64,000 nt of DNA from Escherichia phage EC.P1. Under the pieces are notes generated by a model that saw only the letters and a list, made by a program, of their open reading frames with translations, was not told the origin of the DNA and did no database searches. The number at the start of each line of letters is the position of its first letter. Position 1 is the first letter of the stretch. This document shows, one piece after another, positions 12,571 to 13,625 of the stretch. A program made the position numbers and the translations under genes. Where the stretch lies: sequence record PQ657772.1, one strand, 5' to 3'.

Positions 12571-13104
12571 TTATTTCCTCATGTATTTTATTACATCTTC
12601 AAATAGTTTAGTTTTCAGTGCATCATCATTACCAGGTAGAAAAGTACTGAAGCTATTAAAATCTTCATTTTTGGCAAACTCACGCATCTGTGTGGAACTG
12701 TAGCGACTTACATTTCGGTCAATTCCAGCTTGAACTGCCTTGATTGAACAAAAATTATATAACTTCCCATTGTACGTGTCAAGTGTTTTTTGGAATGGTT
12801 CAAGTCTATCTGAACCACATATGAAAAGAACATCTAAGTACTTTCCATCCAGTTCTCTCATTATATCAAACAGATTATCTTCTGTATAGATATTTTCTTG
12901 TACAGATGGGTAAAATCCTTCTGTATAGTACATTTTCAGTTCAGGAGGTAATGGGTTTTTGACGGCATCAGTACTGGTACTAAGGAATATTTTCAAATCA
13001 GCATTGTACTGTTCTTGTAGTGCTTGAGCTTTTTCAAACACTAAACCATGACCTCGATGTACAGGGTTAATTCTTCCGAATGTCACTACGCATGTTTCTT
13101 TCAT
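12571..13104 (-). CDS. cytidylyltransferase-like nucleotidyltransferase (HxGH motif; NMN/pantetheine adenylyltransferase-like)
   Basis: N-terminal VVTFGRINPVHRGH signature of the HxGH nucleotidyltransferase fold. Confidence 0.65.
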   Translation of the reverse strand: MKETCVVTFGRINPVHRGHGLVFEKAQALQEQYNADLKIFLSTSTDAVKNPLPPELKMYYTEGFYPSVQENIYTEDNLFDIMRELDGKYLDVLFICGSDRLEPFQKTLDTYNGKLYNFCSIKAVQAGIDRNVSRYSSTQMREFAKNEDFNSFSTFLPGNDDALKTKLFEDVIKYMRK

Positions 13105-13625
13105 ATGTTCTTCATCACCTGACCAATAGATTTAAGATGGTTGATTTTAGCTGGAGTCAAATACTTATCCAGTACTATTAAACAACTAGGGAATGGAGCA
13201 CTGTCAGTCTTTTTATCTGGTTCTTCAGGGATACCGAACTTTAAGCGACCTTTTATAAAACAAATACAATCACAAACTTTCGCAGCATAATCCTGAAAGG
13301 CTATAGTATCAGTTCTTGATGGTACGAGAATCAGTACTGTAGCACCTTTGTTATATGCATCAACTGCCTTAGATAACCACGTTTTCAAATCACTGTACGG
13401 TGGGTTGAGCCACACGATATTGTTTCCCCAGTCCTGTTCAAGTGAATTGTCTTCTGGTGTAAAGAACTTATCACACAATGCAGTTTCTTTGACACACGCT
13501 GCATCTAGTGTAAATTCCCAGAGTTCATCCAAATCTTCAAAGAAATCCTTTGGAGTAGTCCAGTTATCTTTTCCAGTACTGAAATGTACTGATTGTTTTT
13601 TCTTCGAAGCATCCTTCTTCGACAT
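13101..13625 (-). CDS. DNA N6-adenine methyltransferase (phage Dam-type)
   Basis: Motif WLNPPYSD (NPPY catalytic motif); ATGA overlap with downstream gene. Confidence 0.8.
   Translation of the reverse strand: MSKKDASKKKQSVHFSTGKDNWTTPKDFFEDLDELWEFTLDAACVKETALCDKFFTPEDNSLEQDWGNNIVWLNPPYSDLKTWLSKAVDAYNKGATVLILVPSRTDTIAFQDYAAKVCDCICFIKGRLKFGIPEEPDKKTDSAPFPSCLIVLDKYLTPAKINHLKSIGQVMKNI

Follow-up and report, generated by a model that had tools for sequence, protein, structure and literature searches.

Two adjacent genes in a jumbo coliphage genome

We examined a stretch of 64,000 nt from the genome of Escherichia phage EC.P1 (PQ657772.1; referred to here as the window), which carries two overlapping genes for a Dam-family DNA N6-adenine methyltransferase and a standalone nucleotidyltransferase of the HIGH superfamily. 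Both open reading frames (ORFs) are on the minus strand, with the methyltransferase (174 aa) at 13101..13625 and the nucleotidyltransferase (177 aa) at 12571..13104; an earlier note on this DNA had placed them at the same positions without giving the strand. The surrounding 3 kb (11500-14500) share 99.4% DNA identity with the Escherichia phages Ecwhy_1, fEgEco12, and WPEC3 and ~84% with 121Q and PBECO4, both Asteriusvirus phages of the Rak2-like jumbo group. Matches of the two proteins to PF05869, phrog_111, and phrog_3041, together with orthologues in some 70 phage genomes, show that both ORFs are genuine genes rather than chance reading frames.

The earlier note did not recognise the pairing as a standard one, yet it is annotated in dozens of GenBank jumbo-phage records, mostly as "DNA methyltransferase" next to "cytidyltransferase". 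Rarer labels for the second gene are "nucleotidyltransferase", "phosphopantetheine adenylyltransferase" (for instance in the Turkey3 and Turkey5 records) and, wrongly, "ribonucleotide reductase A". Both genes and their adjacency are therefore already known. The explanation that we favour, and that we regard as probably correct when taken as a whole, is that the two are ordinary annotated genes from the early/accessory part of the genome of an Asteriusvirus (Rak2-like) jumbo coliphage. The pairing in itself matters little, as it has been annotated before and is explained by inherited gene order; of greater use is the nucleotidyltransferase on its own, a convenient minimal enzyme for assaying a large and uncharacterised phage family.

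A Dam-type DNA methyltransferase

The methyltransferase matches the Pfam family Dam (PF05869) with 112.5 bits against a gathering score of 28.1 (E=2.3e-32), residues 17-161 aligning to profile positions 7-153 of 169, and phrog_111 with E=9e-57. The stretch LNPPYSD at residues 73-79, with the catalytic-type signature NPPY at 74-77, lies inside the part matched by the hidden Markov model (HMM), and a WTTP motif is found near the N-terminus. The score against TIGR01712, the equivalog model for phage N-6-adenine methyltransferases, is 92.6 bits and thus just below the cut-off of 97.05. The PF05869 match and this near miss bear out the phage Dam-type N6-adenine methyltransferase proposed in the earlier note, which would have been in doubt had the NPPY stood outside a methyltransferase context. 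The orthologue is labelled DNA methyltransferase in WPEC5, PBECO4, RaK2, CBB, and Munch. A search of the PDB with the single protein sequence gave a chance match only, with no solved structure close by sequence.

By its family, the enzyme would depend on S-adenosylmethionine and would most likely methylate the phage DNA, shielding it from restriction. Characterised members of the Dam family form N6-methyladenine at GATC. This tetranucleotide occurs 126 times in the window against 239 expected from a maximal-order Markov model (observed/expected 0.53), a depletion that says little about the target but would not be expected from a GATC methylase with a purely protective role. Papers on related phages also speak of protective methylation, as an inference only.

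A bare nucleotidyltransferase domain from a large phage family

The nucleotidyltransferase carries the motifs GRINPVHRGH (residues 10-19, within FGRINPVHRGH at 9-19), KNPL (49-52), GSDR (97-100), and YSSTQMR (135-141, within RYSSTQMR at 134-141). The earlier note had proposed an HxGH nucleotidyltransferase, a proposal that would have suffered had the second conserved motif of the fold been missing; with YSSTQMR in place, membership of the HIGH superfamily holds. An AlphaFold2 model of high confidence (pLDDT 97.1) has the Rossmann-like fold of solved superfamily members, with a strand at 4-10 and a helix at 17-32 around HRGH (16-19) and another helix beginning at 137, next to S136. In an alignment of 45 family sequences, H19 is invariant, and G18, S136, and R141 are at least 90% conserved; the full signature comprises G10, R11, G18, H19, N50, K57, G97, D99, R100 (also invariant), Y111, N112, S136, R141, and F152. 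The first histidine of HxGH is often replaced by threonine among these sequences.

The protein was assigned to phrog_3041 ("cytidyltransferase") over residues 2-176 (E=4.1e-54), and its relatives are numerous. A tblastn search placed the family in 562 phage records, of which ~460 belong to T4-like cyanophages, where the product is called "cytitidyltransferase", and an exhaustive HMMER search returned 2678 cluster representatives at E<=1e-3. The family is phage-only, near-universal in T4-like cyanophages, and present in all Rak2-like jumbo phages; it counts thousands of members in metagenomes, and the domain is often part of a virion-associated or polyvalent protein. The relatives are for the most part far longer (typically ~400-460 aa in cyanophages, up to 1400 aa in others), with fusion partners that include a Zeta-toxin/AAA_33 kinase, DUF5824, DUF6267, RimK ATP-grasp together with a Zn-protease, DUF3140, and a Pol-beta nucleotidyltransferase. 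Of this very large, phage-specific family of HIGH-motif nucleotidyltransferases, the window protein represents the catalytic domain alone.

Curated libraries gave weak, sub-threshold and mostly N-terminal matches (FAD_syn, CTP_transf_like, NadD, RibF). The only Pfam family matched over the full length was PF01467 ("Cytidylyltransferase-like"), with 16.9 bits below a gathering score of 21 (E=0.007); several homologues pass this cut-off at 22-32 bits. With the single sequence, the PDB returned no match, and word-indexed homologue searches with the protein and with a profile retrieved close Rak2-like relatives only, without informative names. The searchable literature contained no biochemically characterised member of the family and no use of the term "cytitidyltransferase", and papers on polyvalent proteins and on the comparative genomics of jumbo phages do not mention the family. 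One cyanophage study states that the function of its member is unclear and reports the protein in purified virions (PMC9146016).

In cyanophages, the gene adjoins gp41, MazG, and UvsX, and the conserved neighbours in 80 IMG/VR loci are those of the cyanomyovirus replication module (gp41, MazG, and others), a neighbourhood that says nothing about the substrate. None of the labels "cytidyltransferase", "phosphopantetheine adenylyltransferase", or "ribonucleotide reductase A" is supported for this gene. The last of these stands in the records MH791411, PP777464, KM507819, and MK773491 and apparently spread from the cyanophage entry H8ZNG8, "NrdB ribonucleotide reductase A subunit".

Junction and conserved gene order

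The overlap of the two genes consists of the sequence ATGA at 13101..13104 on the minus strand (TCAT on the plus strand), in which the methyltransferase stop codon TGA (13103..13101) shares nucleotides with the nucleotidyltransferase start codon ATG (13104..13102), as the earlier note had read it. The methyltransferase gene has a good Shine-Dalgarno sequence, AAGGAA, in front of it; the nucleotidyltransferase gene has only a weak one, inside the 3' end of the methyltransferase gene. Translational coupling in this trivial sense is plausible. The overlap is nevertheless generic: of the 61 pairs of neighbouring genes in the 27 kb of WPEC5 that surround it, 30 overlap, and in seven the overlap is exactly 4 nt.

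The two genes form part of a block that recurs in every Rak2-like lineage examined. Upstream lies a conserved gene of phrog_16210 (13642..14238, minus strand), whose start is probably the ATG at about 14184, to judge from the 543-nt coding sequence in WPEC5, and which holds the same position in RaK2, CBB, Munch, EJP2, PBECO4, Hallingskeid, and metagenome contigs. Downstream lies a gene for a 97-aa protein of phrog_14956 (12275..12568, minus strand) that keeps its position in most relatives. These flanking ORFs have no Pfam match and fall into PHROGs of "unknown function" only. Consensus scans found a sigma-70-like promoter candidate, TTGAAT-17-TATAAT, at 14246..14274 (minus strand) before phrog_16210, the methyltransferase gene, and the nucleotidyltransferase gene, and two minus-strand terminator-like hairpins, at 14840..14812 and 11394..11370, that bracket the co-directional block. 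The second of these (9-bp stem with five GC pairs, then the U-run TTTTTGT) could end the block that holds the pair.

The junction itself is variable: RaK2 and PBECO4 have a 4-nt overlap, Munch, EJP2, and Hallingskeid an 8-nt overlap, and CBB a 21-nt gap, while metagenome contigs with a nucleotidyltransferase 40-43% identical to that of the window have a 1-nt overlap or gaps of 1-3 nt. Xanthomonas phage XaC1 has four small ORFs between the methyltransferase and nucleotidyltransferase genes. Gene order is broadly collinear among Rak2-like genomes: the distance to the NadM-Nudix gene downstream stays at 21-24 kb, for example, and Rnl1 is found only a few kb away on the same side. The adjacency is therefore to be expected from common descent. 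Outside the Rak2-like clade, jackhmmer found a Dam homologue within 5 kb in none of 80 IMG/VR loci that carry the nucleotidyltransferase, and an ORF with a [DNS]PP[YFW] tetrapeptide occurred in three, with 79 of the 80 lacking a methylase-like ORF. The upstream neighbour of a standalone homologue of 37% identity (locus L096) was considered as a diverged Dam and rejected as non-Dam. The pairing occurs only within the clade of Rak2-like jumbo phages, as part of their shared gene order.

The earlier note had called the methyltransferase coupled to the nucleotidyltransferase and the two genes probably co-translated; a coupling in function is not supported by these generic overlaps, the variable junction, and the clade-limited pairing. 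One form that such a coupling could take is a DNA-modifying module, for example one that places a nucleotide-activated group onto adenine, with coupled translation fixing the stoichiometry. This fits the persistence of the adjacency, usually with overlapping stop and start codons, across the clade down to 39% protein identity, and a conservation of this depth could still hide a functional link. Dam domains can be joined to other Rossmann-like domains, as in PHROG 33262, where the partner is of the PAPS-reductase type, and on one unrelated viral contig among the 80 loci (L072), a PF01555 methylase lies directly upstream of the nucleotidyltransferase, which we take as coincidence. Against a module stand the 80 loci without a Dam gene, the ORFs inserted in XaC1 and the gap in CBB, the frequency of overlaps in the genome, and the cyanophage genes, which adjoin replication genes and not methylases. 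Ten restriction enzymes cut the DNA of fEgEco12 into fragments that match the in silico prediction (PMC13070987), and as this phage is 99.4% identical over 11500-14500, the result argues against a bulky hypermodification that needs an activated donor. We consider a joint module very improbable; the adjacency and the ATGA overlap would instead reflect compact gene order inherited within the clade, and they do not point to a two-enzyme pathway.

Possible substrates of the nucleotidyltransferase

From its fold and motifs, the protein would bind a nucleoside triphosphate, most likely ATP, through (H/T)xGH and SxTxxR and would pass the nucleoside monophosphate to a small molecule that bears a phosphate, releasing pyrophosphate. 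As the single best guess, the acceptor may be a pyridine mononucleotide, nicotinamide mononucleotide (NMN) or nicotinic acid mononucleotide (NaMN), which would make the protein a minimal NMN adenylyltransferase (NMNAT); we hold this only tentatively. An enzyme resembling phosphopantetheine adenylyltransferase (PPAT) or FMN adenylyltransferase (FMNAT), or one with a new acceptor, is the likelier outcome when these are taken together. As to the NMNAT option of the earlier note, the fold and the N-terminal motif resemble NadM-type NMNATs, but none of the curated models for NMNAT, PPAT, or FMNAT reaches its cut-off.

An NMNAT that raises or rebuilds NAD+ during infection, as a minimal counterpart of the NMNAT step in the phage NAD pathways NARP2 and NARP3, is a possible but doubtful reading. 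It draws on GR(F/I/M)(N/Q)PxHxGH and the following KNP(L/F), for which hhalign gives an alignment to the NadM domain of CBB gp113 (probability 79%), and on the NadD/NMNAT models of NCBIfam, which are those most often matched by family members (24 + 11 + 9 + 6 of 45). Counted by E-value and not against the cut-off, 24 of the 45 match TIGR00482 at E<=0.01 (best 5.4e-6); the window protein itself is far below the cut-offs, with 18.6 against 112.45 bits for TIGR00482 and 16.9 against 150 for NF000840. Several further points weigh against this reading. A search of the PDB with the family profile puts a PPAT first (8xsv, E=4e-6, residues 2-147), and NMNATs match that profile over the N-terminal ~60 residues only, the C-terminal two thirds of the protein remaining unaligned. 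Among Foldseek matches in the PDB, the top 11 are PPATs at a modest TM-score of 0.62-0.67, and no NMNAT exceeds 0.66. The threonine variant TxGH is the pattern of PPATs and not of NMNATs. No curated threshold is reached for any specific enzyme, so that the acceptor remains a guess. Finally, sister phages carry a bona fide NadM-Nudix NMNAT together with nicotinamide phosphoribosyltransferase (NAMPT) 21-24 kb downstream of the pair (CBB, GAP32, RaK2/K64-1, the Munch group, XaC1, and EJP2), where a second NMNAT would be redundant. The lineage of 121Q, which includes the window, lacks both: no 121Q-type record was found among NadM-Nudix and NAMPT orthologues down to about 36% identity, and at the syntenic site in WPEC5, the two genes are absent while dCMP deaminase, a Sir2-like deacylase, a Nudix hydrolase, and PhoH are kept (WPEC5, PV654397.1, 293.5-297.7 kb, L090:13578-17681, compared with CBB, NC_041878.1, 53-64 kb, L089). 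In relatives, the NARP2-type genes lie between dCMP deaminase and Sir2/Nudix/PhoH. The nucleotidyltransferase would then be the only NMNAT-like enzyme of the 121Q-type lineage, but as it coexists with the NAD salvage genes in CBB, GAP32, RaK2, Munch, and EJP2 and outlasts their loss elsewhere, its distribution is uncoupled from them. An association with genes that produce or import NMN (NAMPT, PnuC, RNK), as in NARP2 and NARP3, was not found. Published phage NAD pathways use other NMNATs, namely NadM-Nudix in NARP2 and a NadR-like enzyme with PnuC in NARP3 (PMC13464706, PMC7824862).

A CoaD-like PPAT or an FMNAT, which would yield dephospho-CoA or FAD, has the full-length profile match and the Foldseek ranking given above on its side, as well as the TxGH variant in many family members and, for the flavin enzyme, FAD_syn/RibF as the best Pfam and NCBIfam matches of the window protein, in the N-terminal region only. 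The CoaD model TIGR01510 does not match the window protein at E<=1 and matches five of the 45 members at E<=0.01 (best 9.7e-6), again counted by E-value and not against the cut-off, and no other genes for CoA or flavin synthesis lie near the gene. The near-invariant arginine of the GR motif and the GSDR and YNG motifs are not PPAT features and count against a PPAT. We rate this pair of acceptors as unlikely. The GenBank label could also be right, the protein being a cytidylyltransferase of the glycerol-3-phosphate or phosphocholine type that acts on cell-envelope precursors, as suggested by the sub-threshold full-length PF01467 match, by homologues that reach 28-32 bits, and by the repetition of the label in the cyanophage literature (PMC9146016). 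Yet PF01467 takes in adenylyltransferases too, the model is not closer in structure to the CTP-dependent cytidylyltransferases GCT and CCT than to adenylyltransferases, the cyanophage study itself calls the function unclear, and other records mislabel the same gene as a ribonucleotide reductase. The name "cytidyltransferase" derives from the name of the Pfam family and from similarity to an entry of Prochlorococcus phage P-SSM4 (note in the RaK2 record), and we consider a true cytidylyltransferase highly unlikely. A further possibility, though an improbable one, is that the 177-aa protein is the minimal form of a phage-only adenylyltransferase family with a reaction that has not been described for phages. 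Such a reaction may be a fourth, NAMPT-independent regeneration of NAD+ (or of a related dinucleotide) or the adenylylation of a new acceptor in early infection.

A structured RNA upstream of the block

Upstream of the pair, at 14298-14789 on the minus strand, lies an unannotated structured RNA element of ~450-490 nt. It occupies an ORF-poor stretch of ~600 nt whose DNA is better conserved than the flanking genes, in relatives whose proteins are only 40-57% identical; current annotations leave the stretch empty or fill it with tiny hypothetical ORFs. With a profile built from the core (14298-14789, minus strand), every orthologous locus gives a full-length match, and paralogous copies elsewhere are matched as well, among them one in CBB at 174.4 kb (L102:2488-3009), antisense to its neighbours, and one in XaC1 at 303.3 kb (L103:2494-2986), with further copies at loci L104-L146. 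By blastn, the element is present in 70 phage records, all Rak2-like, mostly at 4-5 places per record; in the ten Klebsiella (RaK2-type) records, what it detects is limited to one short fragment in one place. IMG/VR contains 43 instances of an exact core motif, almost all on contigs of 350-380 kb and the others on shorter ones, and the complete genomes among these contigs have 3-4 matches each.

Folding of 41 distinct copies with RNAalifold gave 70 base pairs, 44 of them with compensatory changes. A pseudoknot GUUGC/GCAAC, which is never broken and shows three kinds of double change, raises the total to 72 pairs in 16 helices. Across the 41 copies, 97.1% of the cells pair in this model compared with 36-44% when the partners are slid, cells with a double (compensatory) change number 505 compared with 51-71 in the slid controls, and none of 500 shuffles reaches any of five measures. 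The frequent G-U pairs establish the minus strand of the window as the transcribed one. In front of most copies stands an extended -10 box; in the window, a sequence of this kind lies at about 14843-14850 and the hairpin at 14812-14840. Most paralogues have a terminator-like hairpin with a U-run before the last conserved block CCCCUGCGGGGGGAUGAAA...CGUCAGUA. The region and its homologues have no match in Rfam 15, even at E<=10, and ARAGORN finds neither a tRNA nor a tmRNA there.

A role as leader or riboswitch of an operon of the methyltransferase and nucleotidyltransferase genes was rejected, as full-length paralogues stand in unrelated intergenic regions, one of them antisense to its flanking genes. 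The element is independent of the gene pair; an origin-associated primer or R-loop RNA is pure speculation. With 3-5 copies per genome outside the Klebsiella records, no Rfam family, and overwhelming covariation, it is a better lead than the gene pair. Between the RNA and the phrog_16210 start, several phages have one or two short hairpins with loops sharing GAACG-N(2-4)-AGUGA, as at L007:1830-1940 (Munch), L008:1800-1900 (EJP2), and L005:1700-1800 (RaK2), and such hairpins also follow paralogous copies of the RNA. In the equivalent part of the window (about 14185-14295), they are not obvious.

Other features of the window and its relatives

By the same Markov expectation as used for GATC, GCGC is absent from the window (0 observed, about 30 expected), and GTAC is over-represented (587 against 353 expected, observed/expected 1.66), with AGTACT visibly recurrent. 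From about 20000 to 58000 in the window (326-366 kb in WPEC5; L001, L004), there are dozens of co-directional small genes of similar size, all hypothetical, one series of about 170-195 aa and another of about 70-85 aa, which suggests large tandem arrays of paralogues. At 283.5-285.7 kb in WPEC5 (L090:3572-5653), the large subunit of an anaerobic ribonucleotide reductase is annotated as two pieces, of 1833 and 117 nt, on either side of a small ORF; an intron or a similar element may interrupt the gene.

Comparison with known systems

The closest known counterparts of the methyltransferase are the phage Dam enzymes of PF05869/TIGR01712, with which it has in common the full-length HMM match, the NPPY motif, a size of about 175 aa, and a phage origin; it differs from the TIGR01712 members in scoring just under the equivalog cut-off. 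The nucleotidyltransferase belongs to the same family, by sequence and structure, as the cyanophage "cytitidyltransferase" (T4-like gene cluster 190; PHROG 3041/395). Both have the motifs GRxNPx(H/T)xGH, KNPL, GSDR, YNG, and SxTxxR, and Foldseek against BFVD matches the model to the cyanophage homologues of S-RIM2, P-TIM68, S-PM2, and P-HM2 at TM-scores of 0.85-0.92. The cyanophage proteins, however, are extended at both termini and measure 360-460 aa or more, while the window protein is a bare 177 aa.

Compared with NadM-type NMNATs (the archaeal 1f9a, the NadM-Nudix protein 2qjt, and CBB gp113), the window protein is 13-16% identical, with the similarity in the first ~60 residues, and it lacks the Nudix domain of NadM-Nudix. 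With CoaD, the family has in common the best full-length profile and Foldseek matches, the same size, and the (T/H)xGH variant, but identity is 12-20%, and the invariant R11, N50, K57, D99-R100, and Y111-N112 mark it as a separate family. From sequence and model, we conclude that the nucleotidyltransferase represents a phage-specific branch of its own within the HIGH superfamily, on the adenylyltransferase side and about as far from NMNAT as from PPAT.

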